Below are positions 14,948-55,646 of a DNA stretch of 64,000 bases, piece by piece. Both the position numbers and the translations under genes were made by a program. Within the stretch, counting starts at the first letter, position 1. Every line of letters begins with the position of its first letter. Origin of the DNA: Candidatus Bathyarchaeota archaeon (GTDB lineage Archaea > Thermoproteota > Bathyarchaeia > Bathyarchaeales > Bathycorpusculaceae); contig CAWHDT010000005.1 in assembly GCA_963828195.1 (NCBI GenBank), forward strand, positions 384,001 through 448,000, in the 5' to 3' direction. The notes below the pieces were generated by a model. The model worked only from the letters and a program-made list of their open reading frames with translations, had not been told where the DNA came from and searched no databases.

Positions 14948-14977
14948 ATTCCCAATTAGACTTTTATCAATAAAAGG

Positions 14978-28611: not shown

Positions 28612-28613
28612 AA

Positions 28614-31328: not shown

Positions 31329-31330
31329 GC

Positions 31331-35746: not shown

Positions 35747-35965
35747 CAACTTGGCAATAACCAAGCGGAAGAAGAAGAAGAAAAATTGTTTTCACCAGCT
35801 TCTTCTTCTTTTAAAAATAATTTTTTAGATGGCTGCATTAAATCCGGGTTCTTTAGAAGAACAACATTTGAATTTTAGGTGTTGTTGTTCTTTCAAAAAA
35901 AAGTTCTCCAAAGCCGTTCACCCCAAAGATTCAAACCCCAAACCAAAAAAACAACCCAAAACAAG
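35747..35965 (-). repeat. Inverted partial copy of the dispersed element with two palindromic modules
   Basis: 35747-35812 is the reverse complement of 40505-40570 (62/66 identical); ~35930-35962 matches ~40356-40388. Confidence 0.82.
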
Positions 35966-39364: not shown

Positions 39365-40093
39365 TCACTTGCTTGAACCCAGTTCTTTGATGTAGCCTTC
39401 GACTGCGTCGTCGCTTAACATTTCCATCTTCTTAGATGCGACAGATATGACGGCGATTTTTATTCTTGGAGGCAGCTGCCTTGCGTCCAGAGCCTTGATT
39501 AAGCATTTTACTGCGAGTCTGATGCTGTTTTCCAATGTTAAGTCTTCGCGGTATTCTTCTTTTAGAATTGAAACAACTGTTTCTCTTCCTGCGCCTAATG
39601 CTGTGGCTTTGTAGCCTCTGTATGTTCCGCTTGGATGTGTCCCGAAGACTTTGGTTCCTGTTTTGTTGACTCCTCCGAAAATCAGGGAAACGCCGAATGG
39701 TCTGACTCCTGCATGCTGCGTGTACATTTGTTGGATGTCGCAGATTCGTTTGGTTACGACTTCTACGTCTATGGGTTCGTCGTAGGTTAATTTGTTACTT
39801 TGAGCGTATATCCTTGCTTGGTCGATGAGTATTCGGGCGTCTGAGCTTAAACCCACTATAGCGGCGCCGATGTGGTCGTCTACCCGAAAGATTTTCCATG
39901 AGTAACCTGCTTCTTCAAGGACCTCTATGTTTTCTTCTGACCCGAGGACAAGCCCTTCTGGACATTGGATGCCAAGTATGGTGGCTCCGCGGTTAACTAA
40001 CTCCATTGCGTATTCGACTTGGAAGAGTCGTCCGTCAGGCGAGAAAACTGTTATCGCACGGTCATATGCTCCTGGTGCTGCAAATACTGACAT
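39365..40093 (-). CDS. psmA: Proteasome alpha subunit
   Basis: YDRAITVFSPDGRLFQVEYA, GVRPFGVSL. Confidence 0.97.
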   Translation of the reverse strand: MSVFAAPGAYDRAITVFSPDGRLFQVEYAMELVNRGATILGIQCPEGLVLGSEENIEVLEEAGYSWKIFRVDDHIGAAIVGLSSDARILIDQARIYAQSNKLTYDEPIDVEVVTKRICDIQQMYTQHAGVRPFGVSLIFGGVNKTGTKVFGTHPSGTYRGYKATALGAGRETVVSILKEEYREDLTLENSIRLAVKCLIKALDARQLPPRIKIAVISVASKKMEMLSDDAVEGYIKELGSSK

Positions 40094-40259: not shown

Positions 40260-40700
40260 TTTCCAGATCGCGTTCGGTATGTTTTTTGCAGATATTTTTT
40301 AGTTGCGACTTTTGGGCTGGCGTAAGTTGCGACTTTCCGCCTTGGGTCTTTGCGTTTTGGGCTGCTTTTTTGGTTTGGGGTTTGAAGGTGTTTGTGTGTT
40401 GCGACTTTGGGGTGGGCGGATTGCGACTTTCCATGTTGAGTGCATGTTGGAGTTATTGTCGGTTACGGGCGGGATTTTTTGGGTTGCAGCGGCTGTTTTT
40501 CTTCAAAAGAAGAAGAAGCTGGTGAAAACAATTTTTCTTCTTCTTCTTCCGCCTGGTCATTACCACGTTGCTCAACTGAACCCACTTAATAGTTAAAAAT
40601 CTCCATGGAACAAAACCGCCCAGCCATCACCTACGCCAAAAACGGGCACTTACTGTTCAGCCACCCCCAAAAAACCCGATGACATGACCCGGGCTCCAGT
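40260..40700 (+). repeat. Dispersed iteron-containing element, copy A (centre replaced by a GAA/TTC palindrome module)
   Basis: 4x TGCGACTTT; left and right arms align with 49700-50230 and 55066-55600; ends approximate. Confidence 0.85.
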
Positions 40701-41011
40701 TAGAAGTCAGCAACAACGCCGTGGACCAACACGATACTTAAAATCCTCAAAAGGAATTCGGAGAAAAGCCATTCTCTGACATTTGCAGTTGCTAAAGTTT
40801 TTCGTAAATCCAGTTCATGATTGTTTAAAGTGTGTCTTTAGTGAATCCAATGTGTCCAGCTTCGTAGAATCGGGCGCATTTTGGGCTTCCGTGTTCAAGA
40901 AGCAGATAGTAATCTTTTATGGGGAACTCTGGGGTACTATGTATTGCATACGCTCATAACCACGAGCAGACAAATATCCACAAGTTGCTTGTATGTAAAA
41001 CAGGTGATTGA

Positions 41012-41233
41012 ATGGAACCGATGGATAGAATAACGATCGACCCTGAAGTTATGGTTGGTAAACCAGTCATCAAGGGTACCCGCATCACAGTGCAGCTGAT
41101 TGTTCAACTTTTGGCAAATGGGGCAACAGAAGCTGAAATACTAAATGACTACCCAGACTTGAAAAAAGAAGACATTAAAGCTGCCCTCTTATATGCATCC
41201 GAATGCCTTGGTCGCGAAGTTATTCCTGTTTAA
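41012..41233 (+). CDS. DUF433-family antitoxin-like protein (orphan)
   Basis: RITIDPEVMVGKPVIKGTRITV...ILNDYPDL..EDIKAAL. Confidence 0.9.
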   Translation: MEPMDRITIDPEVMVGKPVIKGTRITVQLIVQLLANGATEAEILNDYPDLKKEDIKAALLYASECLGREVIPV

Positions 41234-41527
41234 GCCCAAAATCAACTTGTGATTATCACTGAAAGGAGAATTCGCATAGTTTCATAATCGGTCACATTCC
41301 ATGTAGCGCGGACATTACCTCTTATGGAGACACTTTAACCCTCAACTTGTTCCTTTAATTTGTTCTTTTTGTTGTGATTGTGATTATAAAAACAGTTTTT
41401 GTAAAAAACATGTAACGTGAGTTTTGTGATGATTGTGGAGTTCGCTGCGCCCTTTGGGTTTTGCTTTGAGATAGAAACGGAAATTAAGATTTGTGTGTTA
41501 ATATCCTAGAGCGTTTTTGGTGTTGTT

Positions 41528-42250
41528 ATGCCACGTTTTATAGAGGAAAACGTTAGGGGTCAGTTGGTTGCGGCTTTTGAGAACTTGGTTAATCCTGTGG
41601 ATCTTGTTTTCTTTACCCAAAAAGATTGCGCTGCCTGCGTATATCAGGGGGAGCTGTTACGAGAAGTCAGTTCATTATCAAGCAAATTGACCCTGAAAAG
41701 TTATGACTTCGTTTTAAACGGCGATGAAGCTATGAATTACAAAATAGATAAGATTCCGGCAACAGCAGTTGTTGGCAAACGTGACTATAGAATCCGCTTC
41801 TTTGGTTTAACCGCGGGCTTTGAATTTAAAACGCTTATAGAAGACATCATCATGGTCTCGAGCGAACGCACAGGTCTCGACCCAAGACTCGAAATTTTAG
41901 TGAAGGCACTTCCAAATCCAGTGCACCTGCAAGTAATGGCGTCCCTGACTTGTCCACACTGCCCAAAGGCAGTGCAGGCTGCGCATCGCTTCGCTTTTCT
42001 TAACGAAAATATCCGTTCAGACATGGTTGACCTCAGCGTATTTCCCTATATAGCACAAAAATACAACGTAACGGGAACACCTAAGACCATCATAAACGAA
42101 AGCTAATCATTTGTAGGCGCATACCCTGAAGCCGCCCTTTATCTGGAGATACTAAAAGCAGTAGACCCACAGCAATACCAGAAAGTCGTAGAAGAAATCA
42201 CGAAAGAAGCCAACTTAGCTCAGGGCATGAGCACAGCCTACCCACTTTAG
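41528..42250 (+). pseudogene. Protein disulfide oxidoreductase (two thioredoxin folds) interrupted by an in-frame TAA at 42104
   Basis: CAAC and CPHC motifs; frame continues past the TAA as SFVGAYPEAALYLEIL to TAG 42250. Confidence 0.8.
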
Positions 42251-42458
42251 CATTCGGCGGCAGGATTTTTTAGCTGTTAATTTACAAAAATGGAAAGCCG
42301 AAGGAAAAAACCTTAGAAATTTCTGTATCTGATTATGCGGATACTGTTAAGTTATTTGTCAGGGGATTTTCCAGTTTATTTTCTCTAGTTAGTCAACTAG
42401 TAAAAAGTTTTTGGAAACTAATGAAAATCTAAAATAGATCTTCAGCAAACTCTATTCT

Positions 42459-42941
42459 ATGAGAAAAAGGAAATATGTTTTCCTCATAATTGCAATAGCT
42501 GTACTTATAGTACTTCTATCCGTTTCGCTTTTTGTTATCAATCCTGTTCTTGACCAAAAAAAGCAAGAACCAAAAGCAACTCCAAATAGTAGTAGTTTTC
42601 CATCGCCCTCGCTGGTAACAATAACAGGTGAAATTCAACTAGACTCTAGCTTCTTTATAGAATTAGGTACCCCCCTAGAAGGTGGAGGGTCACATTATTA
42701 TCTGCAAGACCAACAATCAGGCATTAAATATTATTTGCTTAATGGTGACGGAACATTTTTTAGCGGTTTGGATTCACCTCAAATAGGTTGGACAGGGGAT
42801 AATAGTTCTGGAAAACAATTTCAAGTTTCTGGATTTGTAAGCGCTGGAATGTATCGATGCGTCAATCTTACGAACTCAGGACCAAATGGTTTGCAATTAT
42901 TAAATACTCTGACGATAGTTAATGGAACAGAAATATCCTAA
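42459..42941 (+). CDS. Membrane-anchored/secreted hypothetical protein
   Basis: Basic N-terminus plus TM helix, Ser/Pro linker, beta-rich extracellular part. Confidence 0.7.
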   Translation: MRKRKYVFLIIAIAVLIVLLSVSLFVINPVLDQKKQEPKATPNSSSFPSPSLVTITGEIQLDSSFFIELGTPLEGGGSHYYLQDQQSGIKYYLLNGDGTFFSGLDSPQIGWTGDNSSGKQFQVSGFVSAGMYRCVNLTNSGPNGLQLLNTLTIVNGTEIS

Positions 42942-43114
42942 TCTCTGGTTACCTTTCATATTGCTAATTCTTGGCAGCCTAAAAAGAGTCATGACAAATA
43001 ACTTAACAGTATCGATTATGCGTAATGCTTTTAAGAATGGCGAGTTAAATGCAACAGACATCGATCAGCCAGTTAACTATCTATTAGTTTATCGTTTATA
43101 CGGGGAGTTTAAAA

Positions 43115-44305
43115 ATGCAGTATAGAACTGTACCTAAAAACGGCGATAAGTTGTCAGCTCTTGGATTTGGAGCCATGCGGTTACCGCTAAAGGGACAAAA
43201 CCTCGATGAAGAACGCGCAATAAAACAAATTCGTTATGCAATCGACAACGGCGTAAACTATGTTGATTCAGCGCCACCCTATCATGGTGGTGAGAGCGAG
43301 AAGGTGCTTGGAAAAGCCTTGTTGGATGGCTACCGCAAAAAAGTAAAGATAGCCACAAAACTTACCCCGTTTCTGCTAAGTAAAGCCGAAGACATGGACA
43401 GAATATTAAATGCATCGCTGCAAAAACTGCAAACTGATCACATTGACTATTACCTTCTGCATGGGCTTGAAGAAGAGGTTTGGAAAAAACTGCGAGCCTT
43501 TAACGTTTTACAATTTTTGGAAAAAGCAAAAGCCGATGGAAAAATCGTCAACATAGGCTTTTCATTTCACGGGTCCATTGAAACCTTCAAAGAAATCATA
43601 GATGCAAATGACTGGACGATGTGTCAAATGCAATATAATTTTATGGATGAAAAAGTGCAGGCGGGAACGGCAGGCCTGAAGTATGCTGCTTCGAAGAATC
43701 TTGCGGTTATGGTTATGGAGCCGCTGAGGGGCGGAGCATTAACCGATAAGCTTCCAAATGAAGTAAAGCAACTTTACGATGACGCTAAAATTCTGAGGTC
43801 TCCGGCTGAGTGGGGTCTTCGCTGGGTGTGGAATCATCCGGAAGTGACGGTTGTTCTTTCAGGAATGAATATGAAGAAACAAGTTGCCGAAAACGTTAAA
43901 ACCGCGGAGACAGCGTTTCCATGCTCAATGGAACCCACCGAGCTTGCAACTATCAAAAATGTAGCTGAAGCTTATAGGCGCCTTATCAAGGTTTCATGCA
44001 CGGGCTGCCGATACTGTATGCCGTGCCCTTCCGGAGTCAATATTCCCGCCAACTTCAGAATCTACAATGACTACTGCATGTTCAGCGATAAAAAAAGATC
44101 AAGACTGATGTATGCGTTGATGTTAATGGGGGGATTCGGCGGTAAACGGTCCGATGCCTCACTATGTATAGAATGCAAAAAATGCGTAGAACTTTGCCCC
44201 CAGCACATAGATATTCCTCAACAGCTTAAATCGGTTTTAAAAGATATAGGTGGCTCCAAAACTGAATCGGTAATTGCCACACGAAGTAGCGTGCTTCGAA
44301 AATAA
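43115..44305 (+). CDS. Aldo/keto reductase with a C-terminal 4Fe-4S dicluster
   Basis: LGFGAMRLP, YHGGESE, IDYYLLH, GFSFH, MEPLRGG, CTGCRYCMPCP, CIECKKCVELCPQ. Confidence 0.92.
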   Translation: MQYRTVPKNGDKLSALGFGAMRLPLKGQNLDEERAIKQIRYAIDNGVNYVDSAPPYHGGESEKVLGKALLDGYRKKVKIATKLTPFLLSKAEDMDRILNASLQKLQTDHIDYYLLHGLEEEVWKKLRAFNVLQFLEKAKADGKIVNIGFSFHGSIETFKEIIDANDWTMCQMQYNFMDEKVQAGTAGLKYAASKNLAVMVMEPLRGGALTDKLPNEVKQLYDDAKILRSPAEWGLRWVWNHPEVTVVLSGMNMKKQVAENVKTAETAFPCSMEPTELATIKNVAEAYRRLIKVSCTGCRYCMPCPSGVNIPANFRIYNDYCMFSDKKRSRLMYALMLMGGFGGKRSDASLCIECKKCVELCPQHIDIPQQLKSVLKDIGGSKTESVIATRSSVLRK

Positions 44306-44436
44306 CGTTCAAAACCTGCATGAAAACGTTTTTTAGCCGTTTGTTATTCACAGAACAATGTCACTATGGGCAACCCAAAATACTGTTTCAGTAAGTGTTA
44401 AATTTTGGTTAAGACGCCATTTTATACGGTGAAAGT

Positions 44437-45006
44437 TTGTCACAAGTTGAAAAAGGGCACGGCGCAAAAGGATCAGACGAAGCTAACTTAAACGCTGTTT
44501 TGAATGCTGCAAAAAAGCGGGCGGAGCAGTTGGGAATCAAGTCTGTTGTTGTGGCGTCCACCAGTGGAGATACAGGAGTGAAAGCGGTGAAAATGTTTAC
44601 AGGATATAACGTTGTTGTGGTAACGCATAGCACTGGCTTTAGTGGACCAGATGTTCAAGAGTTGATACCGGAGAATCGGGAACTGATTCTTAAGGCTGGT
44701 GGCAAAATCTTGACCACGACCCACGCGTTTGGAGGATTAGGTCGGGCAGTTAGAAGAAAGTTTAACACGTACCAAACCGATGAAATCGTTGCGAATACGT
44801 TGCGGGTTTTTGGTCAAGGAACCAAAGTTGCGGTTGAAATCGCAATGATGGCGGCTGATTCTGGGCTCATAAGCGTAAAAGAAGATGTAATTTCCATAGG
44901 AGGATCAGGCAGTGGAGCTGACACGGCGCTTGTGATTCAACCAGCCAATGTTCAAGATTTCTTCGATGTAAAAGTTCGGGAAATCATTTGCAAACCCTGG
45001 CTCTAA
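44437..45006 (+). CDS. Pyruvate kinase C-terminal-like domain protein
   Basis: VVVASTSGDTG, VVVTH, GQGTKVAVEIAMMAADSG, GADTA, REIICKP. Confidence 0.82.
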   Translation: MSQVEKGHGAKGSDEANLNAVLNAAKKRAEQLGIKSVVVASTSGDTGVKAVKMFTGYNVVVVTHSTGFSGPDVQELIPENRELILKAGGKILTTTHAFGGLGRAVRRKFNTYQTDEIVANTLRVFGQGTKVAVEIAMMAADSGLISVKEDVISIGGSGSGADTALVIQPANVQDFFDVKVREIICKPWL

Positions 45007-45458
45007 AAAAACTGGAAGCGTGTGTACGCTCCCACTTAGCTGCTTATGGTAGGTTAAAATTTTGATCAAACTATAGCTTGTTAATCGTGACTTCACACTG
45101 TGACAACAAAGCTCAATATAACCGTGTTTTCTCTCATTGTATTGAAGAAAACAGCCAGAAAGAATTGTTTTTCTGGATATGGTGAAAAGCGTAAGAGCTG
45201 CGATAGACCGAGGCTGAGAAGGCTCTGGTAAATCCATTTTATCAGAACAATTAGATTTTGCATTTTTATTTTCCTCCCAAAGTTCCAGAGCCTCAGCATA
45301 CTCTTTAGGAAATTGATTTATTCATTTAGTTTTTCGTGGTCTCTTCTTTAAACCCAGTGTCTTGGTATAAGAAAAAATTTATCAAATTTTCTTCGTTTTA
45401 GAACATTAACCTCTGATGTGCAGTGGAATGATAGAATAGATTCCATCTCAAAACGTCT

Positions 45459-45779
45459 TCAAACATCATTACTTTTTAAAATTCTGCTCAAGGCATCAAG
45501 CCAGAAACCAAATTTTTCTTTACTATCAACTGATAATATCTTGTTATCTTTATCAACAACCATTTCTACAACGCCATTCAAAATTACCATAGGTAAGGGC
45601 TCTGATTTTTGTTCACCGTCAAGTTTTTGCCTCTCAACTTTAACAATTTGAATACCGTCAGCTTTGATGAAGGTATTTTTATCCAGCCAAAACCCTTCTT
45701 GACATTCATCCAAGCTATTCCAGCCCAAATGTTCCTTCAGCAGTTCCTGCGTTGTCTTCTTATCGAGACCTTTTCTCAA
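45459..45779 (-). CDS. Hypothetical protein
   Basis: 106-aa ORF with GGAGAGTGGTG SD-like upstream. Confidence 0.5.
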   Translation of the reverse strand: MRKGLDKKTTQELLKEHLGWNSLDECQEGFWLDKNTFIKADGIQIVKVERQKLDGEQKSEPLPMVILNGVVEMVVDKDNKILSVDSKEKFGFWLDALSRILKSNDV

Positions 45780-46149
45780 AACACCACTCTCCCATCATTT
45801 GCCAATCGCTTATTTTAGTTTTTGTAAAATTGTGGGGTTTAACACAAAATACAAAACTGGGTTAAAATCTCATGAATAGCCAGGAATATAGGTTGCAAGC
45901 TTTTGCCATGGGTTTAACAAAGTATTGGTTACAATCTCAGCTTAAATTTATTTTAGATCTCCGATGAAAAATAAATGGCTAAGCAGGGGTCGGATTTGAC
46001 TCCTTGAAAAGTGGAAAACATAACCCGCATGCCCCCTTTTTCTGTCATTCAATCCATATTTGGGGCTGCCAGGTTAATTATGACTTGAATCTGAGTAGCT
46101 TTTAAATAGATAGAATTGTGCATTATTATACAATTAGAGTTGGCGACAC

Positions 46150-46482
46150 TTGCTGTTTAAACATAAGAGCGTCGTAAAAGTTCAAATGGCGGATTTGGAC
46201 GGCGAGAAAGAAAACCTCGCGAATTTTTTGCGTAGCCAATCCAAACTGAATTCATCAATAACTTCCGAGGGATTGGAACTGAATATAACGGATGTTTCCG
46301 CCCATGCATTGGCAAGAATGGTAACAAAGTTTGTTTACCACAAGAATTTAAACGGCACGCATTGGGTTACCGTGGAAAACAACGTGGTAAAAATCAGCAG
46401 GTTCAAAGTCACAGCTAAGAAAAAAGAAAAACATGAGAAAAGCAAGCCCCATCAAAACATTGTACAAAGCTGGGGATTGTAA
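46150..46482 (+). CDS. Divergent eL22-like protein
   Basis: LANFL, LARMVTKFVYHKNL...WV...KISRF resembles the eL22 pattern (by eye only). Confidence 0.5.
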   Translation: MLFKHKSVVKVQMADLDGEKENLANFLRSQSKLNSSITSEGLELNITDVSAHALARMVTKFVYHKNLNGTHWVTVENNVVKISRFKVTAKKKEKHEKSKPHQNIVQSWGL

Positions 46483-46572
46483 AACGCATTTCTTATTATT
46501 ATGTAGTCTTGGTGTCAGCTGCAATTCTCTTTTTACTTAAAATCAGTTGTATCTGACAAGTGCGTTTCTGGC

Positions 46573-46920
46573 TTATCCGGATTCTCTTCTGGTGGTTTTG
46601 CATTTTGTGCATCTGAAGAATGTAATTGTTGAATGAATAGTCTCGTCTGCAGCTTCAACAGACCAAGTTTCGCTTTCGGTATTTCCGCATTTTTCGCAGA
46701 CCACATGGATTGTTGGAAGCAGCCTAAGCATTGCCTCTTTGCTTTGGTCTATAACAGCGATTTCAGCTCCTTTGCCAAGATGTAGGCTTATTTTTTTGTT
46801 TGATTCTTTAGGCTCCGTTGGTTTTTGGTATTTGCATTTTGGGCATCTAAGTGTGGAGGAGTCTTTTTTCGTTGTTTGAAGTATAGATCCGCATTTTGGG
46901 CAGAAGTCCATTGCATTCAC
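46573..46920 (-). CDS. TFS/RpoM-family zinc-ribbon transcription factor paralog
   Basis: FCPKCGS, CPKC, CEKCGN...AADE...FFRCTKC. Confidence 0.82.
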   Translation of the reverse strand: MNAMDFCPKCGSILQTTKKDSSTLRCPKCKYQKPTEPKESNKKISLHLGKGAEIAVIDQSKEAMLRLLPTIHVVCEKCGNTESETWSVEAADETIHSTITFFRCTKCKTTRRESG

Positions 46921-47326
46921 CTGAGTGGAGGCTTTTTAGCTAAAATGATTCTTATGTATTGCGACTCTTACGTTACAAATAATTCAATTAATGTTCTATT
47001 TGGTGCAAATGGTACCTAAATCGAGCGGAAACACAGATGCATTCCCTTTTTTATGTCGGTTGAAGCTTGTTTAATCAGCCTTGTTCACTAGGCTGAATCA
47101 ATAAAGTTTTTATTTTAACTCTGAAATATTCTCTATTAGGCATGAAGAACCAAAAAAAGAACCGCAAAGAAATCTTGGCCGATATTCTAAATCAACAAAG
47201 TCCATAGCGGTTCGTAAAATATTGAATTCTTAAACGAGAACATGCGCCTTAGGTTCTGGCAAAGGCGGCAGTTAGTGGATGTACCAAATCTTATAACTTC
47301 ATCCATGAAGGAAAACATCTCGCAGA

Positions 47327-48094
47327 TTAACCCAAGTCTATTCGGAGCAACTTACCTATTAATAATTCAAGTTCGCTGAACCTTTCTCTATCCAATATAC
47401 AGTCTGCTTTGAATTTGGCTTCATTAAAGTTAGCAGTTGAATTTCTTATCAGGATAGTTTTCATACCTATTTGTTCTGCACCAGCAACATCCACAGCAGG
47501 GTTATCTCCAACATACACGCAACTTGCAGGCGCGATTTTTAGAAGATCACAGATTTTGATAAATGGTTGCTTGTGAGGTTTTGTTTCCTTTGTGTCCTCT
47601 CCTGAAACAACAATTGCATCAAAAAATTCGATTAGTCCAGACGAGCATAGCCTTTGATATTTCATTCCTTTTAGCCCATCAGTATCGCTAACCATTCCTA
47701 AATGCATATTCTTCATCTTAAGAGAAACAAGCAAATCCACCGCTCCAGGATATGGAAGAGAATATTTGACTATGGTACGCCAGTAGCTCAGAACGGCTTC
47801 AGATAAGACTTGCCGGGGCAGCTTCAAAGCGGGAGTGCAGTATCTTTTAACTGCTTCTGAAAACCAAACTTTTCTATCATAAATCAGCTTTGCAGACATT
47901 TCCCTATCAACATCAGAAATAAGGGCAACCATAGCTTCTTTGTTTATTTTGCAACCTCGTTCTTTTCCATAATCTGCAAGAATATTGGCAACTTCAATGT
48001 GGGCAAGTTCTCTACAAGTATAAGAGTCCATTAATGTGCCATCAAAATCGAATATTACCCCAAATTGTGAGGGCGCTCTAGCGGCTTCCAACAC
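47327..48094 (-). CDS. HAD-superfamily hydrolase
   Basis: FDFDGTL, KP, YVGDNPAVD. Confidence 0.88.
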   Translation of the reverse strand: MLEAARAPSQFGVIFDFDGTLMDSYTCRELAHIEVANILADYGKERGCKINKEAMVALISDVDREMSAKLIYDRKVWFSEAVKRYCTPALKLPRQVLSEAVLSYWRTIVKYSLPYPGAVDLLVSLKMKNMHLGMVSDTDGLKGMKYQRLCSSGLIEFFDAIVVSGEDTKETKPHKQPFIKICDLLKIAPASCVYVGDNPAVDVAGAEQIGMKTILIRNSTANFNEAKFKADCILDRERFSELELLIGKLLRIDLG

Positions 48095-48140
48095 ATCAAC
48101 TCACTGTCTTCTGCATACTTTTTCCAGCCCGCACTTTGCG

Positions 48141-48824
48141 CTATTTGTCAAAGCCAAGTATCATATTGAGCTTATCCAAAGCTCGGTCTGAGGCTTCTTT
48201 GTCTGGAAACTCAAGGTCATCTTCCTTTGGTTCGGTGCCGGCAAAAAGGCAAAGTGCCTCAATACCCTTTCGTTTTGACAAGCCAAATACCAACCCTGAG
48301 AAGCCCATGAAGGGTCCTTTGTATCTTATGTCGATGCTGTATTTTTCTTTCATCTCAGCGACTAATTCTTTGCTGGTAGCAGCGCAGCATATTTTCTTGT
48401 CCTTTGAACCGTAACCTGCAATAACTATTATTCTTTTCACGTGGTTTTCAGCTAGGAAATCTAGAACTTTTATGGCAACTTCATATTGGCCTTCAAAATT
48501 TGCGTGATATCCCTTTGTAATGATTAAAGAAGGGGAGAAACTAGTGTAGAACTCGACTTTGGGAAAGTCTGCTTCGCCGGATTCAACAATAACTCCTCCA
48601 AAGCCAGGCAACGTTGGATCGGCAGCATAAGAAGGCTTAGTTTCGTAGATGGAAGGCATATGCATGGAATACAGGTCTGCAATTTTCGTTGCTTTGGTTT
48701 TCGCTATGAGACTATCCATAACAAGTTTGCCTATAGACCTCAACCCGGGCGATCCAACAACAGCTATGGGGTCGATAACTTTGGCGTCGCCGCGGCGTTC
48801 TATCCACGTTTCTTTTTTCATCAA
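48141..48824 (-). CDS. PAC2-family proteasome assembly chaperone-like protein
   Basis: VGSPGLRSIGKLV, GQYEVA, GFSGLV. Confidence 0.8.
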   Translation of the reverse strand: MMKKETWIERRGDAKVIDPIAVVGSPGLRSIGKLVMDSLIAKTKATKIADLYSMHMPSIYETKPSYAADPTLPGFGGVIVESGEADFPKVEFYTSFSPSLIITKGYHANFEGQYEVAIKVLDFLAENHVKRIIVIAGYGSKDKKICCAATSKELVAEMKEKYSIDIRYKGPFMGFSGLVFGLSKRKGIEALCLFAGTEPKEDDLEFPDKEASDRALDKLNMILGFDK

Positions 48825-48835
48825 TGCATCCTCAG

Positions 48836-49621
48836 TTAAGTGACGTAGGCGGGCTTCTTACCTGAACCGGCCATTTGTTCTCTTATTCGACGCTCAATTT
48901 CAACCAATTTCGCAATTGTCTCATCCATTTGCGCCACTTGCTTGTCCATCGGCTCCATATCTACTTTCAAATTCAACATTGAAGACAAAACTTTCAAAGC
49001 CGCCTTCGCCGCCCGGGGATCTATAACGTATTCTCCAGTGGGAGTTTGGTACCCGTGAGTTTCCGCAAGCAAACAGGCTCCTTCCACGTTTTTCTTTTTG
49101 GCAAGACCTGTTATTATGCCGTTTTCGCCACCGATGACTCCATCCTCCAGAAACTGGGCTCCATGCGTTTTAGCTTCTTCAAGTAGAGCTAATGTTGTCG
49201 TGGTACAGTAAACGTTTGGTGCCTCAAAGGGTCTCTCAGTTACGTAGGCTGCAACGGAGTATATTCTCTGCACGCTATTTTTGATTGCCCAATCCAACAC
49301 CGCATCCGCAACCTCGTACTGGCCTTCAGGAGAATAAGCCTGCGAGTTGCCCGTGAGAAAAACGATTGTTCGTCCCGATTCTTCTTTGAATAGGTGGAGT
49401 TCGTTTCGAAGAAGCTCAACAAGTCCGTCTTCTTTAATAACGACAAAGGGCGGAAAATACTTTGAGTAAACTTCCCCAACCAGTTCAGCTTTGAGTTGCT
49501 GAATGAGGTAGTCAACTGAAAGTTTCCCAATGTAAGCTGTTCCAGGCAACCCACACACGAGTATTAATTGATTAGGCGTAAACTCCTTTAGCATTTTGAT
49601 TTCAACACTCATAAGATGCAA
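48836..49621 (-). CDS. PAC2-family proteasome assembly chaperone-like protein
   Basis: GLPGTAYIGKL, FPPFV, TGNSQ, EGQYEV, CLLAET, DPRAAK. Confidence 0.87.
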   Translation of the reverse strand: MHLMSVEIKMLKEFTPNQLILVCGLPGTAYIGKLSVDYLIQQLKAELVGEVYSKYFPPFVVIKEDGLVELLRNELHLFKEESGRTIVFLTGNSQAYSPEGQYEVADAVLDWAIKNSVQRIYSVAAYVTERPFEAPNVYCTTTTLALLEEAKTHGAQFLEDGVIGGENGIITGLAKKKNVEGACLLAETHGYQTPTGEYVIDPRAAKAALKVLSSMLNLKVDMEPMDKQVAQMDETIAKLVEIERRIREQMAGSGKKPAYVT

Positions 49622-49699
49622 ACCAACTTCGATTCAAGATAAGTAGTGACACAAATGAACTTTTTGTTTGAACCCCTGCAGAACACCCAAAAGCACCCG

Positions 49700-50230
49700 C
49701 TTTCCAGATCACGTTGGTGTGTTTTTGGCAGATATTTTTAAGTTGCGACTTTTGGGCTGGCGTAAGTTGCGACTTTCCGTTTTGGGTCTTTGCGTTTTGG
49801 GTTGCTTTGGTTGTTTGGGGTTGAAAAGGCTTTGTTTGTTGCGACTTTGGGATGGGCGGATGCGACTTTCCATGTTGAATCTATGTTGACGGCACTGTCG
49901 CGTATGGGCGGGTGCCGGGGGATTCTTTGTTCGCCGGGCAACATGAAAGACCGTGAACACCAACAATTCGACGCCGCCACCAGCACAAACAAAGAAAAGC
50001 TTACACCGGCTAAACCGCCACAGAACAAAACCGTCCAGCAACCCCCCGCCACCGACAAAACCCAACAACTAAACAAACAACAACAACACCTACACCAAAA
50101 AACAAACGCCTAATGTTTAGCCATTCCCAGAACAGCCACGATGACATGACTTGGGCGCTGGCTTGGCAGTTTCGCGGTGCATGCAAACAGGTCTTCTGGT
50201 TGTTGGTGCAGTGCTTCCACACTGAGATAA
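49700..50230 (+). repeat. Dispersed iteron-containing element, copy B
   Basis: TGCGACTTT at 49744, 49768, 49840, 49861; colinear with copy C; ends approximate. Confidence 0.9.
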
Positions 50231-50337
50231 AGCCGAGCCTTTTCCGTCTCCGCTTTTTAGACTTTTATGTTGCTTTGTAGGTTTTTGTTGCGGCAAAGTT
50301 AAGTAGTACTTTTGTTAAGTTGTACTTGTGTTAAGGC

Positions 50338-50565
50338 ATGACTGAAGTTGTAGTTACCAGGAAGGGGCAGGTAACCATACCCATAGAGATAAGAAAAAAG
50401 TTTGGCATAGAGGAGAGCTCAAAAGTAGAGATTGTTGAGCAAAACGGCATGATCGTGATTAAAAAGCGCCCGAGCATTTTTGATTTGGCAGGCAGCGGCG
50501 CTGGAAAAGGCAACGTTGCCGAGTTGAAAAAGATGCTGGATCAAATGAGGGACGAAGATGCCTGA
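50338..50565 (+). CDS. AbrB/MazE-family antitoxin
   Basis: VTRKGQVTIPIEIRKKFGI. Confidence 0.9.
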   Translation: MTEVVVTRKGQVTIPIEIRKKFGIEESSKVEIVEQNGMIVIKKRPSIFDLAGSGAGKGNVAELKKMLDQMRDEDA

Positions 50566-50947
50566 CAGGCGTCTATATGACACCCGCTTTTTTGTTGAGT
50601 ACTTCTACAGCGAGGATGGAGAGCGTTTAAGAAAGCTCAAGGAGGAATTGCGGTTAGTTAAGGAAAGGATGGTTTCATCATTAACCGTCCATGAGATTCA
50701 CCGCATCAATTTTCTGCGGCAGGGAAAAGATGTTGCAGACCTTAGAAGCAGCACGATAAGACGCGACTTTAAAGTCATCGACGTCGATTACCAGACAGCA
50801 ATAAAAAGTGCGGAAATAAGAACCAAACACAAAATGCCAATGGCTGACAGCGTAATCGCAGCAACAGCCCAAATCTATGAATGCACCCTATTTTCAGACG
50901 ACAATCACTTTAAAGAAATAGAGAACCTAAAAACAAAATGGTGCTAA
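50558..50947 (+). CDS. vapC: VapC-family PIN toxin
   Basis: YDTRFF, TVHE, MADSVIAATA, SDDNHF. Confidence 0.9.
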   Translation: MPDRRLYDTRFFVEYFYSEDGERLRKLKEELRLVKERMVSSLTVHEIHRINFLRQGKDVADLRSSTIRRDFKVIDVDYQTAIKSAEIRTKHKMPMADSVIAATAQIYECTLFSDDNHFKEIENLKTKWC

Positions 50948-50989
50948 ATGACCTTATTCACCCAATCGCTCAGTTATCGCACATTTGCC

Positions 50990-51090
50990 GCTGTCCAGCA
51001 ACTGAATAAACAACCAATATACCTACACCAAAAACAGAGACCTACAATAATGCCACCGCAAAACAGCCTCAACATGATTTGTGCGCTATC
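50990..51090 (+). repeat. Partial (right-arm) copy of the dispersed element
   Basis: gtccagcaac...cctacaccaaaaaca...gccaccgcaaaacagcc..aacatga matches the right arms of copies B and C. Confidence 0.65.
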
Positions 51091-51156
51091 GCTCTTTGAG
51101 AAGCAGCTTTTTCAAATTTATAAGACGCTTCCTGCATTCATATCAAGTAGTGATCT

Positions 51157-51378
51157 TTGATGGCGAAGACAGTACACTTAGATGAGGAAGATCGTAAACT
51201 TCTCGCTGAAACCAAGCAAAAGCTCGATGAAGCAACCAAGCTTATGGGGGAACGGATGGAAACCTTCGAAATTTTAAGCGACCCCGAAATGGTAAAAGCC
51301 ATAGAGGAAGGGCAAGCAGACATTAAAGCTGGAAGAGTAAAAGAGTTACGGACACTTCTAAAGGAAGACGCCTGTTGA
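51157..51378 (+). CDS. RelB-like antitoxin
   Basis: ETFEILSDPEMVKAIEEGQADIKAGRV C-terminal motif. Confidence 0.7.
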   Translation: MMAKTVHLDEEDRKLLAETKQKLDEATKLMGERMETFEILSDPEMVKAIEEGQADIKAGRVKELRTLLKEDAC

Positions 51379-51425
51379 AACCCAAGTGCACGGTTGTTTT
51401 ATCCAGACAAGCAGAGCATTTCTAG
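51375..51425 (+). pseudogene. Stub of a RelE/ParE-like toxin
   Basis: TTGA-coupled MKPKCTVVLSRQAEHF* resembles a RelE N-terminal strand-helix; ends at the helicase 3' end. Confidence 0.5.
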
Positions 51426-53695
51426 CCTTCCAGCATCACTAAAAGCCTTTTCAGAATTATGCTTGCTGCTTTCTTGTCTAAGGGTTTGTTTTCGTTTCCG
51501 CATTTGGGCGAGTAGATGCATGAGGGACAACCGTCTTTGCACTCGCAATTCTCAATCAGCTCTAAGGTTTTTTCGAGTAAGGGTTTTATGTTTTGGTAGA
51601 GGTTTTCTGAAATTCCGATCCCGCCTTCAAAGCCGTCATAAATGAAAATCGTTGGGTTCCCCGTGTCCGGATGCAGAGGAGTCGATAAGCCTCCAATGTC
51701 CCATCGGTCACACATCGCAAAAATCGGCGACATCGCAATCATCGCATGCTCAACCGCGTGAATTCCCCCGTCAAAATCGAGCTCGCCATCTTCGATTTCC
51801 CTCTTGATCTCCTCAGGAATAATAAACCACATGCCAACCGTTGAAAACGATAACGGCGGGAGATTAAGCGGTTTTCTCTCAACAACCTCATCATATGATT
51901 TGGTGACATAGGTGTGGTAAAATTCCGTTGTAATTAATTCGCCTAAGCCAACCTGGATTCCGATTTGTTTTTCTTCAAGAGTTCTCTTTATGGCGACATC
52001 AACGGTTTTTAGTGCTTCCGTGTAGTAGTTGACGTTTTCCTGTGTGACTTTAGCTGTTAATTTGTTGAGGTCTAATTCTTCAGAGATGTAAGTTTCGCCC
52101 TGATGAAGCAAAACTGCGCCCGCGTATGCTTCCTCGTAGGCCTTGTTTAAGGAGAGGGTTTCAAGTACGGTTCCGTTACAGGTTACGGTGACGGTTTTGT
52201 CGGAGATACTCTCCAACGTTACAACCTCGACAGGCCTTGCAGTTCCCGAATAGACGTATCCCCTCGGCGTTTTGCGAACCAGATTTTGTCGTTCCAGAGC
52301 TTGAACGCTTTCTTGGAATAGTTCGGGGAAATATTTTTTGTCGGCCTCTGTCAGGGGCAGCTCGCTTGCCGCACACATAATGTGCCCCAAAGAAATGTAG
52401 CGGTTATGCAAATCAATAATGGCTTGTTCATGTGACCTTCCAAAGAAGTCTTTGGGATGCTTCATGAAGTATTGGTCAAGAGGGTTCTGAAAAGCAACCA
52501 GCGTTACAAGTGAATCTGCGTTGGTTCTGCCTGCTCTTCCCGCCTGCTGCCAAGTCGATATGACAGTTCCCGGGTAACCAGAGATAATCACTGAATCCAA
52601 AGAACCAATATCGATGCCCAATTCGAGTGCGTTGGTTGACACAACACCGATCAAGCTTTTTGTCTTTAGCCTGTTCTCTATTTCCCGCCGTTCTTGAGGC
52701 AGATAACCTGCTCGGTAAGCTGTAACGGAGTTGGCTAGTTTTGGTGATCTTTTTTTGAGGTCTTCTTTGGTCCATCTTGTTATAAGCTCAGCCATTTGGC
52801 GGGATGTTGTAAAGCAGAGGGTTTGGAGGTTTTTTGTGATGTTTAGGGTTAGGAGGTCTTTGGTTTCTTGATGAGTGGATCTTCGTGTGGTGTTGGTGTC
52901 GTCGATGAATGGTGGGTTCCAGAAGAGGAATGATTTTTTTCCTCTTGGGGCGCCGTCGTTTGAGATGATTTCGAAGTCTTTTCCCGTCAGTTTCTTGGCG
53001 TGTTCTTGGGGGTTTGCGATGGTGGCTGATGAGAGGATGATTTGTGGGTCGGCGTGGTAATAATTGCATACTCTCATAAGACGTCTTAGGAGCATGGCTA
53101 CGTTTGAGCCAAATACGCCGCGGTAAACGTGGGCTTCATCGATTATGACGAATTTGAGGTTTCCAAGAAAGCTTCGCCACTTATAGTGCCATGGAAGGTA
53201 CTGGTGGAGCCCATATGGGTTGCTTAAGATGATTTTACTGTTTTCTCTTATGTTTGCCCTTTGACTTTGAGGAGTATCACCATCGTAAACGTTAGGGTAA
53301 GCTTGGATGCCCGTTTCTTTTTCCAGTTCTCTTAGAACCTTTAGCTGGTCATTTGTGAGCGCCTTAGTCGGGTAAAGGTAAAGTGCAGTCGCTTTGGGAT
53401 CTTTTGTGAGAGCTTCGAGGACAGGAATGTTGAAAGCTAAGGTTTTTCCTGAAGCTGTCGGAGTGACAATCGCCACGTTCTTGCCCGCTCTTGCTTTGTT
53501 TATGGCTTCAGCCTGATGCGAATAAAGATGGATGTCTCGGGTCAATAAGCAATTTTGAATATTTTGCGGCAGGGATTTTTCTAACTCGCCAAAACATGCT
53601 TCGTGCGGGGGAATTTCTTGTATGTGCACTATCTGTTTTTTGTAGCCTTGCATGTGCTTTATGCTTCGGATAAAGTCGTCTATCAAAGGTTCCAC
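51422..53695 (-). CDS. DEAD/DEAH helicase with a DUF1998 Zn/Fe domain (MrfA/YprA/Hrq family)
   Basis: TPTASGKT, DEAHVYRGVFGS, SATIAN, ELGIDIG, QQAGRAGR, HAVEHA, CECKDGCPSC...KC. Confidence 0.92.
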   Translation of the reverse strand: MEPLIDDFIRSIKHMQGYKKQIVHIQEIPPHEACFGELEKSLPQNIQNCLLTRDIHLYSHQAEAINKARAGKNVAIVTPTASGKTLAFNIPVLEALTKDPKATALYLYPTKALTNDQLKVLRELEKETGIQAYPNVYDGDTPQSQRANIRENSKIILSNPYGLHQYLPWHYKWRSFLGNLKFVIIDEAHVYRGVFGSNVAMLLRRLMRVCNYYHADPQIILSSATIANPQEHAKKLTGKDFEIISNDGAPRGKKSFLFWNPPFIDDTNTTRRSTHQETKDLLTLNITKNLQTLCFTTSRQMAELITRWTKEDLKKRSPKLANSVTAYRAGYLPQERREIENRLKTKSLIGVVSTNALELGIDIGSLDSVIISGYPGTVISTWQQAGRAGRTNADSLVTLVAFQNPLDQYFMKHPKDFFGRSHEQAIIDLHNRYISLGHIMCAASELPLTEADKKYFPELFQESVQALERQNLVRKTPRGYVYSGTARPVEVVTLESISDKTVTVTCNGTVLETLSLNKAYEEAYAGAVLLHQGETYISEELDLNKLTAKVTQENVNYYTEALKTVDVAIKRTLEEKQIGIQVGLGELITTEFYHTYVTKSYDEVVERKPLNLPPLSFSTVGMWFIIPEEIKREIEDGELDFDGGIHAVEHAMIAMSPIFAMCDRWDIGGLSTPLHPDTGNPTIFIYDGFEGGIGISENLYQNIKPLLEKTLELIENCECKDGCPSCIYSPKCGNENKPLDKKAASIILKRLLVMLEG

Positions 53696-54981
53696 TCCTC
53701 ATAAAGCTTGGAAAATAATGTTCCGAGGGTTAGCAGGTCTTGCCGGTTGTGCTCAACAATTGCGACGAGCGGTCCAGCATTTTTTGTTCTCAAGTAAGTT
53801 TCGTAGAAGTGAGGAACCAAGGCGCCCGGAATGTTGATGTCTCGCTTTATTCCGATGTATTGTTCGACGGTTTCTAGTTTACAATCCGCTAGTTTGTGAC
53901 GCAGTGCCCGTCTGGTGAAGTGGAGAACATCAAAATGCGGGTTATCCAGCGGCGCATCTAACCCATAGTAAGCTAATCTTTGCTTAATGTATGGAATATC
54001 AAAGCTTCTGCCATTATAGGTTATGAGTGACAAGTTGGGTTCAAGCTGCGAAATAAGCGCCCAAATCGCGCTGGGTTCATCCTGAATGTCTCTTAGCAAA
54101 AACTGGCTTGTGCAAACATGAGTTTTGGCTGGTTTAGCTATGCCTAGTAGAATTATGGGTCGCTCTGACAGCCCTAAGGTTTCGATGTCTACGATGGCGA
54201 AGTCTTGATCTTGGCAGAACCCGGCTAAATAATGAAGCAGCGGATGCGATTTGGGGAAGCGTTGCCATAGCCATTTTTGAATTTGGGGGATTTCTTTTTT
54301 GTTTATTATTTTCATGAAGTCATGGGCTTGTTTTTTCCAAAGGGGGTGATTTTCAAGGTCTACTATTGTTGTGTATCCTTGTTGTTTTAGGGTTTGTTCG
54401 CGTGCAGGTCCTATTCCGGGAAGAGCTTTCAGGTCTGAGATGATTTGTTGTCTGCTTTCCTGGTAAGTTGCTTTTTTAAAGGCAGAAATGCGCGAAGCTG
54501 AGATGTGGTAACATTCTCCCTGTTGATTTGAAACAATCTCGCCAGCTATGGCGTCTTGGAGGTTTTTGCCTTCGTATTGTTTGATGAGTTTCTTTTCAAG
54601 GTTCAATGCCTCGTCGTATTCGCTGCTCCAAATCCAGCTTTCAACCGCCGATTCAGCGGGGTGTTCCGTGGTTTTTTCTGTTTCAGAAATTACCTCATAC
54701 TCTTTTGAACGAGCAATTCTCTCGCTTAGACTTTCAGCCGCCCGTGTCAACGCGATTTTTTCTTTGAAAGAACCATTCTCGCCAATTGCGGAAGCTTGAT
54801 TGCCAAAGCTTTTTTGAGCCAACATTTGAGCATAACGGTCATCCCTAAAACTTCGCAGCAGAAAAGAACCGCACACCTTGCAAAACCTGCTCTGCTCATA
54901 CTCCAGATTCGAATAGGTTTTGTTGCACTTTCTGCAAACGTATTCTATTGGCAATTTATGTTCTGCCTTAAGTCTGTGCAA
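53683..54981 (-). CDS. MrfB/YprB-like RNase H-fold exonuclease with an N-terminal Zn ribbon and HhH
   Basis: CRKC..CKVC, LPGIGP, DIETLGL, TYNGRSFDIPY, HFD, HNRQD. Confidence 0.87.
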   Translation of the reverse strand: MHRLKAEHKLPIEYVCRKCNKTYSNLEYEQSRFCKVCGSFLLRSFRDDRYAQMLAQKSFGNQASAIGENGSFKEKIALTRAAESLSERIARSKEYEVISETEKTTEHPAESAVESWIWSSEYDEALNLEKKLIKQYEGKNLQDAIAGEIVSNQQGECYHISASRISAFKKATYQESRQQIISDLKALPGIGPAREQTLKQQGYTTIVDLENHPLWKKQAHDFMKIINKKEIPQIQKWLWQRFPKSHPLLHYLAGFCQDQDFAIVDIETLGLSERPIILLGIAKPAKTHVCTSQFLLRDIQDEPSAIWALISQLEPNLSLITYNGRSFDIPYIKQRLAYYGLDAPLDNPHFDVLHFTRRALRHKLADCKLETVEQYIGIKRDINIPGALVPHFYETYLRTKNAGPLVAIVEHNRQDLLTLGTLFSKLYEEWNL

Positions 54982-55065
54982 TGATTATAAAAGCCATTCT
55001 TTTATTTGGCCAAAAAGCCGAGGATAGCGTATTTAGCTGGGGATTTTTCAGTCTTAATTTTTTTA

Positions 55066-55600
55066 GATTTTCGAGATTTCGTTGGTGGGTTTTTGCAGAT
55101 ATTTTTAAGTTGCGACTTTTGGGCTGGCGTAAGTTGCGACTTTCCGCTCTGGGTCTTTGCGTTTTGGGTTGCTTTGGTTGTTTGGGGTTGGAAGGCGTTT
55201 GCGGGTTGCGACTTTAGGATGGGCGAATGCGACTTTCCATGTTGAATCTATGTTGACGGCACTGTCGCGTACGGACGGATGCCGAGGATCCTTTGTTCGC
55301 CGGGCAACATGAAAGACCGTGAACACCAACAATTCAGCGCCGCCACCCAGCACAAACAAAGAAAATCTCACACCAGCTAAACCACCACAGAACAAAACCG
55401 CCCAGCCACCCCCACCACCGCCAACCACGCCAACAACAAAACAAACAACAACACACCCACACCAAAAACAAACACCTACAACCTCAGCCACCCGCAAAAC
55501 AGCCACAACAACATGACATAGGCACTAACTTTAGCGGTTTCCTGCAGTATGCAGGTGCCTCCTACGGGTGCAGGAGTTGTAATGCTTGCACACTAAAGGA
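55066..55600 (+). repeat. Dispersed iteron-containing element, copy C
   Basis: 4x TGCGACTTT; colinear with copy B; ends approximate. Confidence 0.9.
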
Positions 55601-55646
55601 AAGGATTACGCCCTGTCGAGATATTATAAAACAAAGTCTAATCACA

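Follow-up and report, generated by a model that had tools for sequence, protein, structure and literature searches.

A polar box array upstream of housekeeping operons in Bathyarchaeia, with terminase gene remnants and variable cargo on its far side

Results

Box arrays and terminase tails in the window

The DNA analysed here, a stretch of 64 kb referred to throughout as the window, comes from a Candidatus Bathyarchaeota archaeon (contig CAWHDT010000005.1, positions 384,001 to 448,000) and carries three copies (A, B and C) of a repeated element upstream of psmA, a PAC2-family gene and an MrfB-like exonuclease gene, respectively. The 'element' is a composite of two modules, namely a non-coding, G+T-rich core in which short boxes are repeated in the same direction and a decayed tail which, judged by sequence comparison, derives from the terminase gene of a tailed virus. 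The core belongs to a family whose members lie in a locked orientation upstream of housekeeping operons across genomes.

The motif TGCGACTTT occurs 13 times in the window compared with 0.83 expected, and a count of 13 or more was reached in 0 of 100 shuffles. Twelve of the 13 motifs form three groups of four on the plus strand (40304-40430, 49744-49869 and 55111-55236), spaced 24/72/22 nt in copy A and 24/72/21 nt in copies B and C. An earlier note on this DNA had described four motifs in two pairs, three colinear copies, a right-arm fragment and inverted fragments. Repeat finding, MAFFT and BLAST confirmed the copies (A, ~40260-40700; B, ~49700-50230; C, ~55066-55600), the right-arm fragment at 50995-51087, which is real by BLAST, and the inverted fragments at 35747-35815 (92.8% identical to A) and 35930-35962 (93.9%); the paired motifs also stood, although the 21-nt gap that had been reported is atypical, most family members having 22. 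Copies B and C are 86.8% identical over 478 nt, and the identity of A to B (86.0%) is confined to the left 214 nt. In all, B and C have ~535 nt in common at 87-91% identity, lie 5.4 kb apart and have unrelated flanks; in the alignment of the cores they are 91% identical over 247 columns. The switch from G+T to A+C that the note had described was found as claimed, G+T being above 72% at 40210-40526, 49691-49941 and 55020-55260 and below 28% at 49919-50174 and 55270-55577 (copies B and C). So was the position upstream of three minus-strand genes, the copies beginning 167 nt (psmA), 79 nt (PAC2) and 85 nt (MrfB-like) from the gene starts.

Searches of the whole window with nhmmer and for boxes revealed no more core copies and no single boxes at other promoters; a G+T-rich stretch at 59272-59539, considered as a degenerate further copy, was dismissed on reading its sequence. 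By eye, no terminal inverted repeat (TIR) is present at the ends of the B/C homology and no target-site duplication (TSD) beside it, the flanks of the two blocks being unrelated and without a short direct repeat. An inverted-repeat scan inside each copy gave only short arms with 71-80% complementarity, driven by composition, and a scan of 70 window open reading frames (ORFs) detected no integrase, transposase or Rep domain. The absence of a transposase, TIR and TSD, already noted before, was therefore upheld.

The features are listed in Table 1. The inverted partial copies, at 35747-35963 and 40353-40570, both of which consist of the A-type hairpin module and a piece of core spacer, bracket the psmA-to-L37Ae operon. 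The psmA orthologue at another locus of the family (L018) matches the Pfam family Proteasome.

Table 1 Positions of the core copies, terminase remnants and neighbouring genes in the window.
Feature	Position	Strand	Details
Core copy A, G+T-rich, non-coding	40260..40496	+	boxes at 40304, 40328, 40400, 40422; upstream of psmA; nhmmer 40290-40502, E 3e-53
Hairpin module AAGAAG...CTTCTT, in copy A only	40497..40570	+	inverted copy at 35747-35820; arms 91% complementary
Terminase 3' remnant A	40593..40720	+	internal deletion, frameshift, stop; tblastn 40593-40688, aa 340-384 of P0006, E 4e-6; profile 40627-40720
Core copy B	49699..49915	+	boxes at 49744, 49768, 49840, 49861; upstream of PAC2 operon; nhmmer 49730-49913, E 2e-49
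Terminase 3' remnant B	49950..50232	+	A+C-rich, frameshifted, in-frame stop; tblastn 50017-50166 (aa 343-392, E 9e-9) and 50160-50222; left limit by eye
Core copy C	55066..55282	+	boxes at 55111, 55135, 55207, 55228; upstream of MrfB-like/MrfA operon; nhmmer 55097-55279, E 2e-51
Terminase 3' remnant C	55390..55602	+	aa 345-415 of P0006, 46% over 71 aa, E 7e-10; in-frame stop at Trp codon of conserved motif
Fourth, shorter terminase-remnant fragment	51021..51091	+	profile E 1.7e-8; after VapBC pair
Inverted partial copy of A: hairpin module and core spacer piece, no box	35747..35963	-	between L37Ae and Pcc1
psmA	39365..40093	-	first in psmA-SBDS-Rrp4-Rrp41-Rrp42-L37Ae operon; reads away from core A; names by eye from translations
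PAC2-family gene	48836..49621	-	reads away from core B; PF09754, E 1e-44
RNase_H_2 (MrfB-like) exonuclease gene	53683..54981	-	reads away from core C; then MrfA-type helicase 51422-53695
VapB(AbrB-type)/VapC(PIN) cassette	50338..50947	+	between terminase remnant B and fragment 51021-51091

The core family across genomes

Loci were collected in one exact-pattern scan of species-representative genomes, in which the pattern demanded one exact box pair and which yielded at least 110 loci. Of the 110 loci listed, 62 match an nhmmer profile built from A, B and C, and these core loci are spread over at least 12 assemblies, 11 of which are titled Bathyarchaeota or Bathyarchaeia and one of which is a metagenome-assembled genome (MAG) titled 'Limnocylindrales' (three contigs). 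The element is thus a dispersed family, as the earlier note had proposed, with at least 17 core loci in one assembly and at least 10 in each of two. The other 48 loci, none of which is in a record titled Bathyarchaeota or Bathyarchaeia among the matches listed, are chance pattern matches. The core is lineage-specific, its bearers belonging to a clade of soil and peat Bathyarchaeia. The three contigs of the MAG titled Candidatus Limnocylindrales (L016, L094 and L109) each have a Bathyarchaeia core and look like archaeal contigs binned into a bacterial MAG, since L016 has an archaeal TFB gene and flanks like those of L020; the assembly is probably mis-binned.

The core is a G+T-rich, non-coding array of ~250-450 bp with 4-6 GTTGCGACTTT boxes in the same direction and with ATGTTGA and ATTGTCGG repeats. 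In order, it comprises an A/T run, box 1, box 2, a spacer, boxes 3 and 4, two ATGTTGA units and one ATTGTCGG unit, and in many copies it is extended by a fifth and a sixth box. The A/T run, of 8-11 nt and made of A and T only, always adjoins box 1 on the gene side. The conserved stretch is ~250 nt and not the boxes alone. In 45 aligned copies, identity is 0.92-1.00 in the boxes compared with 0.70-0.82 in the spacers, a difference that is partly a product of how the loci were chosen and that otherwise agrees with the earlier claim of invariant motifs and drifting spacers. The spacing of box 3 to box 4 is 22 in most family members and 21 in B and C. Nine of the 45 copies, all from two assemblies, have the second ATGTTGA unit in inverted orientation, giving a palindrome (by eye). 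At two loci, L002 (2166-2410) and L014, the core is split: the ATGTTGA region and a second partial copy are separated by a ~240-nt insertion that has a hairpin of its own and may be a small mobile insert.

Copy B had no blastn match in plasmid and phage collections, and the copies had no match in Rfam, the sole Rfam 15 match in the window at the gathering score being one tRNA.

Orientation upstream of housekeeping operons

For the analysis of neighbouring genes each locus was oriented with the core on the plus strand, and the neighbour was defined as the closest ORF of 100 aa or more on the side of box 1 (43 loci). These counts rest on 2-kb flanks; 30 loci with 300-base flanks were left out. 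In 36 of the 43 loci the neighbour is on the minus strand and reads away from the core (p = 9e-6), an orientation lock across genomes that the earlier note had missed. Pfam matches identify 18 of these 36 genes as informational or proteostasis genes, namely TFE (four), EF-2 (three), Spt5, Rpb5 and Rpb2 (two each) and L3, uL15, proteasome alpha, RFC and Hsp20 (one each). Further named genes on the box 1 side encode PFK, phosphorylase, an M48 peptidase, FtsX and OsmC, and 13 of the 43 ORFs have no match in Pfam. The core is present at the TFE, EF-2, psmA, RpoH/B and SecE-Spt5 loci in two to four assemblies each. The PAC2 and MrfB genes beside copies B and C are unseen among the 43 other left genes. 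The S13-S4-S11-RpoD-L18e-L13-S9 operon of the window (28204-31822, minus strand) has no core upstream, so the association of cores with such operons is not universal.

The distance from box 1 to the start codon is 79-378 nt and reaches 875 nt where more coding sequence intervenes. At the long distances a small gene sits between (by eye, the candidate identities are SecE, SUI1, an OB-fold SSB and a tautomerase). Every adjacent gene retains a conserved proximal A/T box of its own (by eye), separated from box 1 by filler that is A/C-rich on the gene strand. In two species, the EF-2 locus has an unrelated glycoside-hydrolase-like gene, co-oriented, that terminates right at the distal core edge, and the gene strand has no T5-T6 run until after the core plus filler.

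The right half is a terminase gene remnant

Sequence comparisons identify the A+C-rich right half as a pseudogene fragment, the last 45-85 codons of the large-subunit gene of a tailed-virus terminase, which reads away from the core. The element had been described as non-coding, which holds for its left half and not for this pseudogene. A right-arm profile was searched over the window and the loci listed and, among the matches listed, found nine places, four in the window and the others at L015, L018, L058, L071 and L083. Translation of the L015 arm led to five short database proteins (E 2e-13 to 1e-10), one of which is named 'phage FluMu gp28-like'. Four of four short ORF proteins tested matched PHROG terminase large-subunit families (5909/5713; E 8e-7 to 9e-4), and the Pfam Terminase_6C match was weak (E 0.037, one of five proteins). 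There are 130 longer relatives, many of 430-460 aa and some named terminase large subunit of Bathyarchaeia. Their pre-computed Pfam accessions include PF03237 in nearly all of those listed and PF17289 in most, which we take to be Terminase_6N and Terminase_6C, respectively. The stretch SHPQNSHDDMTWALALAV, common to P0001 and P0003-P0005, lies within the last ~80 terminase residues, and in tblastn searches the window arms align to residues ~340-415 of the 424-aa terminase P0006 (E 7e-10 to 4e-6). One relative, P0048, is 929 aa long and has pre-computed Pfam accessions including PF07591 and PF14890, presumably Hint/intein-type domains; it may be an intein-bearing terminase.

No intact terminase ORF with ATPase and nuclease domains was found. 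Only residues ~340-415 of 424 remain, with no earlier part of the terminase at any locus and no terminase ATPase domain anywhere in the window (tblastn). The A+C richness of the right half is partly due to the Q/N/H/T/P/K-rich terminase tail and to its decay.

A remnant lies within ~700 nt of 5 of the 48 oriented cores, with none that close to the other 43. With nine profile matches among the matches listed and 5 of 48 cores so equipped, the right arm was ruled out as a universal second end of the element. The arrangement of core and remnant also occurs in other assemblies (L015 and L083), and the junctions between the two modules vary between loci. At the psmA locus of the window the remnant follows directly after the core; at that of L058, ~1.6 kb with three ORFs, including MazF, lies between the two; and at that of L018 the core is immediately followed by a short tail, with a second piece ~1.8 kb off, beyond an ATPase gene. 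One database ORF, P0002, reads through two boxes into a remnant.

Coding, RNA and folding tests

The left half was ruled out as coding sequence on either strand, there being unshared frames, no Pfam family above threshold and no period-3 signal. ORFs are open on both of its strands because the skew removes stop codons, and B and C have no common reading frame because of 1-nt indels. Pfam searches of seven ORFs over the copies gave one sub-threshold match only, and 48 aligned copies showed no period-3 conservation over the boxes (power ratio 0.06-0.51 in five windows, positions 100 to 310). Strand-skewed repeats of this kind yield long spurious ORFs on both strands, which calls for caution in annotation, since such ORFs are already in protein databases (P0002).

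A structured RNA was likewise ruled out by the lack of an Rfam match and of covariation. The covariation check suggested in the earlier note gave no support for an RNA: RNAalifold on 45 copies paired only box 1 with box 2, with a covariation term of -0.2 kcal/mol and compensated pairs in 1 of 21.

The proposal that the element folds back on itself, left half on right half, did not survive comparison with controls in which the halves were shuffled separately (B, z -0.01; C, z +0.87). Copy A folds better than such controls (z -2.0) because of its private AAGAAG/CTTCTT hairpin. As B and C fold no better than half-wise shuffles, the fold-back idea rests on composition alone; dinucleotide shuffles of the whole sequence would mislead, since they destroy the skew. 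With the right arm accompanying so few cores, these results also speak against one self-complementary unit of ~500 bp. Intrinsically bent DNA was rejected as well, the T-tracts showing neither a 10-11-nt periodicity nor helical phasing.

Variable cargo on the far side

On the far side of the core, 40 loci were scored by their first ORF of at least 100 aa with a start more than 420 bp past box 1. The strands of these ORFs show no bias (22 minus, 18 plus). Nine of the 40 are of toxin-antitoxin (TA) or restriction-modification (RM) type, comprising five PIN proteins and one each of AbiEii, TumE, an MNT-type nucleotidyltransferase and HsdM; four others are archaeal ATPase_2 proteins (three) and a UvrD-like helicase (one), and the rest are assorted metabolic or surface proteins or have no Pfam match. 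Nearer ORFs supply TumE at L026 and L040. The cargo differs between orthologous loci. The idea of a hotspot for gene gain was in this way sustained, for one side of the core.

At L026 a full core (1990-2170) and a partial core (3228-3430), in direct orientation, lie around a TumE toxin gene and its partner; the second core has no box 1 and contains a 41-nt insertion. In the window, VapBC sits between two copies of the terminase remnant. By eye, copies of the core or of the terminase remnant form the cassette borders. No integrase, transposase, portal, capsid or terminase gene was found in the flanks (40 first right-flank ORFs) or in the window, and no recombinase or viral gene among 100 right-flank ORFs searched against PHROGs (E <= 1e-6); the 'Hoc-like' and 'tail' PHROG matches were rejected as viral genes, the proteins being PKD/Ig-domain proteins.

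Pieces of tRNA genes were seen at three loci. At L048 and L057, the distal core end adjoins a tRNA-Arg(CCT) gene that, set against the intact gene of L078, lacks ~12 nt at its start, and at L019 a tRNA-like piece does so (all by eye). No intact tRNA gene lies beside the cores of these three loci (ARAGORN; cmscan at E <= 0.01).

Two palindromes before the VapB start, AAGTAGTACTT and AAGTTGTACTT (window 50290-50335), resemble the palindromic context of boxes 1 and 2, AAGTTGCGACTT. The likeness may be coincidence, or a hint that the boxes are read by an AbrB-type protein. One of several candidate DNA binders of the window is a 367-aa protein with an AbrB/MazE-type DNA-binding domain fused to PhoU (21246-22346, minus strand); none of these candidates, this protein included, is linked to the boxes.

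Two further repeats in the window concern other genes. Within 14618-15984, genes for UPF0175 and PIN proteins adjoin a 198-nt direct repeat (14739-14936 and 15787-15984; 76% identical), which makes a duplicated TA module likely. At 1111-6514, the repeat families D3, D5 and D6 lie inside paralogous genes with Pyr_redox_2 and 4Fe-4S domains, beside an FlpD/MvhD-type gene; we read these paralogues as HdrA-like and as ordinary gene paralogy.

Cores of one genome resemble each other

In a tree of 48 cores, the genome label requires 18 changes compared with a mean of 30.5 in shuffled labels (0 of 200 as low), and the three window copies form a group with a Shimodaira-Hasegawa-like approximate likelihood-ratio test (SH-aLRT) value of 89. 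When only the 23 rows with known loci are considered, labelling by locus takes 16 changes compared with 17.2 (77 of 300 as low), which is no better than chance, and the genome label of the same rows needs 12 compared with 15.0 (3 of 300 as low). Each genome has its own version of the spacer that separates box 1 from box 2. The copies cluster by genome and not by locus, and are homogenised within genomes.

Discussion

A polar box array marks the border of conserved operons, and beyond it the flank varies and has many TA and defence genes, with terminase tails at some loci and, at L026, a repeat-bounded cassette; within a genome the arrays are homogenised. Our preferred, tentative reading, to which we give a probability of roughly 0.4, is that the core is a putative protein-bound docking or recombination site for proviruses and cassettes that enter and decay, and that the 'elements' of the window are scars of such events. 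A recombinase or accessory protein whose gene lies elsewhere would use the boxes in the manner of arm-type sites. On the distal side of the core, tailed proviruses and TA/defence cassettes would come in and later be deleted, and would leave scars in the form of a core with a terminase tail (copies A, B and C) or of a core, cassette and partial core (L026). Cores within one genome would become alike through recurrent entry and exit or through gene conversion, and the fixed polarity would spare the adjacent essential operon and its proximal promoter. Published work (PMC6393860, PMC11697101 and PMC11705971) describes tailed proviruses with a terminase as common in Bathyarchaeia and TA-rich islands in archaea.

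A broader version of this reading, which we regard as unlikely, is that the cores are genome-wide 'landing pads' of ~300 bp, i.e. iteron arrays in one orientation before essential operons at which viruses and TA/defence cassettes dock, amounting to a distributed, integron-like capture system without an integron integrase. Docking at such pads would rely on a putative recombinase or on recombination by the host between a pad and a copy of it carried by a virus; the passage of viruses would maintain the similarity among the pads of a genome, and the array would insulate the essential promoter as well.

Several observations weigh against a docking or recombination site. Its chief weakness is that no recombinase was found in the DNA examined: neither an integrase nor a transposase nor another recombinase is present in the 70 window ORFs, the 40 first right-flank ORFs or the 100 right-flank ORFs compared with PHROGs. 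No intact provirus lies beside any core within the flanks (2 kb, or 300 bases for 30 loci), flanking direct repeats and a crossover point were not seen by eye, and only 5 of 48 oriented cores have a terminase tail. As for paired ends of the attachment-site (att) type, a full and a partial core lie in direct orientation around the TumE cassette of L026, and no pair was seen around a provirus within 2-kb flanks. Attachment sites do not need a strict orientation lock, which fits a regulatory role equally well. Clustering by genome could equally stem from gene conversion without a mobile element, and the deep branches of the tree are weak, 22 of 45 being drawn open. The invariance of the boxes is partly inflated because the scan required one exact box pair, and the evidence base as a whole consists of at least 110 scanned loci with short flanks.

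The main rival, somewhat less likely, is that the core is instead a host cis-regulatory or insulator array, with boxes bound by a putative host protein upstream of housekeeping promoters, whether as an upstream activating platform, a distal promoter or a polar roadblock against transcription from the variable region. Accessory genes and virus scraps would then gather beyond the core only since that DNA is unconstrained. The orientation lock, with half of the 36 away-reading genes being informational or proteostasis genes, favours such an array, as do the occupation of the same loci in several species, the A/T-only run that always abuts box 1 on the gene side, and the lack of a recombinase among the window and flank ORFs. 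The EF-2 locus, where a co-oriented unrelated gene ends at the distal core edge and the first T5-T6 run comes after the core, also fits. Independent drift of operators, however, would give neither the ~250 nt conserved beyond the boxes nor the clustering by genome. The box 1-start distance varies (79-378 nt and up to 875 nt), so that the distance from the core to the proximal A/T box must vary too; a box never stands singly at other promoters of the window; the S13-to-S9 operon is without a core; and the T-tracts lack helical phasing. Recent copying of B and C is suggested by their 91% identity before PAC2 and MrfB loci that were unseen among the 43 left genes. A docking site and a host array are not mutually exclusive.

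Of mobile elements in the strict sense, the earlier note had considered a non-autonomous one. In its present form, this would make the core and the terminase tail a deletion derivative resembling a miniature inverted-repeat transposable element (MITE), which retains both termini of a virus-like autonomous element and is copied in trans. The ~535 nt held in common by B and C between unrelated flanks would be accounted for, as would the joint occurrence of core and remnant at L015 and L083, the P0002 ORF that spans two boxes into the remnant, and the restriction of all remnants to at most 85 last codons with the 5' part of the terminase in no locus. We consider it improbable: neither TIR nor TSD was seen by eye, no transposase or integrase is encoded by the 70 window ORFs or 83 neighbouring ORFs, core-remnant junctions are unlike between loci, with 43 of 48 cores lacking a remnant within ~700 nt, and the occupancy of orthologous loci in different species speaks against frequent movement.

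The earlier note had also offered a relic of an integrative element with an iteron-type origin. Recognition of the right arm as a terminase 3' remnant strengthens the 'relic of an integrative element' part. A replication origin, or the relic of one, of an integrated plasmid or virus is very unlikely. The direct repeats of a 10-11-nt box in two pairs, the adjoining A/T run and the virus-derived DNA beside some copies resemble one, but an assembly with at least 17 loci, the lack of a rep, primase, helicase or orc1/cdc6 gene beside the core (window; 40 and 43 neighbouring ORFs) and the lack of a plasmid or phage match argue against it, and it leaves the orientation lock to host genes unexplained.

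Equally remote is a small RNA or small protein encoded by the core, for which ORFs open on both strands, such ORFs from gene callers (P0002) and an A/T run that could be a TATA box might be cited, since the ORFs follow from the skew, the frames of B and C differ through 1-nt indels, the box 3-4 spacing is 22 in most copies and 21 in B and C, neither period-3, a Pfam match above threshold, covariation nor an Rfam match was found, and the plus strand is full of T runs, which end transcription in archaea.

Bathyarchaeia are abundant, uncultured and genetically intractable, and their cis-regulatory DNA, mobile elements and uptake of defence genes are almost uncharted. The core offers a concrete starting sequence for locating proviruses and integration hotspots in MAGs and for seeking the protein that recognises the GTTGCGACTTT boxes, as well as for testing whether bound arrays shield essential promoters in archaea. 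No such repeat is described in the literature searched (full text) or in the Rfam, plasmid and phage collections.

The core can be compared with known systems. It resembles the lambda-type attachment sites attL and attR of tyrosine-integrase elements in its same-direction repeats of 10-11 nt over ~200 bp and in its polarity towards inserted DNA, and prophage attL/attR sites and scars in the virus gene remnants that adjoin it and the variable cargo on one side. It differs from them in that an integrase was looked for and not found, short identical direct repeats were not seen around an insert within the 2-kb flanks, the site is not in a tRNA gene, and there are many sites per genome, upstream of host operons and in one orientation. 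As at the platform of a chromosomal integron, small accessory cassettes, many of them TA pairs, follow a fixed site prone to recombination, and a cassette is bounded by repeat copies (L026, and VapBC in the window). Unlike an integron, it has no IntI gene beside it, no Phage_integrase-type match having been found beside any core (window and 40 first right-flank ORFs, with PHROGs on 100), and its cassette borders are, by eye, core or terminase-remnant copies and not attC-like imperfect palindromes; the cargo reads both ways (18 plus, 22 minus), and there are many dispersed sites and not one array.

The window copies look like the two ends of a solo long terminal repeat (LTR) or MITE, core and terminase tail, with the interior gone, but TIR and TSD are absent, junctions are not uniform and most cores are without a second end. 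Eukaryotic roadblock sites for Reb1, Rap1 and TTF-I (T0) are likewise oriented, stand before housekeeping promoters and could stop incoming polymerases; this is a functional analogy only, the binding of the core being putative and its whole ~250 nt being conserved and evolving in concert. Like the bacterial BOX, Correia and repetitive extragenic palindrome (REP)/bacterial interspersed mosaic element (BIME) repeats, the core is modular, multi-copy, intergenic and often by gene starts; unlike them, it is archaeal, longer and strongly strand-skewed, has a locked orientation and lacks terminal inverted repeats. Alignment places the right arms on the last ~80 residues of the large subunit of tailed-virus terminases (Terminase_6N/6C; 'FluMu gp28-like'), and they differ from these in being the tail only, with stops and frameshifts and with no ATPase domain in the window. 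The core is a relative of known kinds, i.e. of the dispersed intergenic repeat, the attachment-site-like hotspot and the prophage scar.

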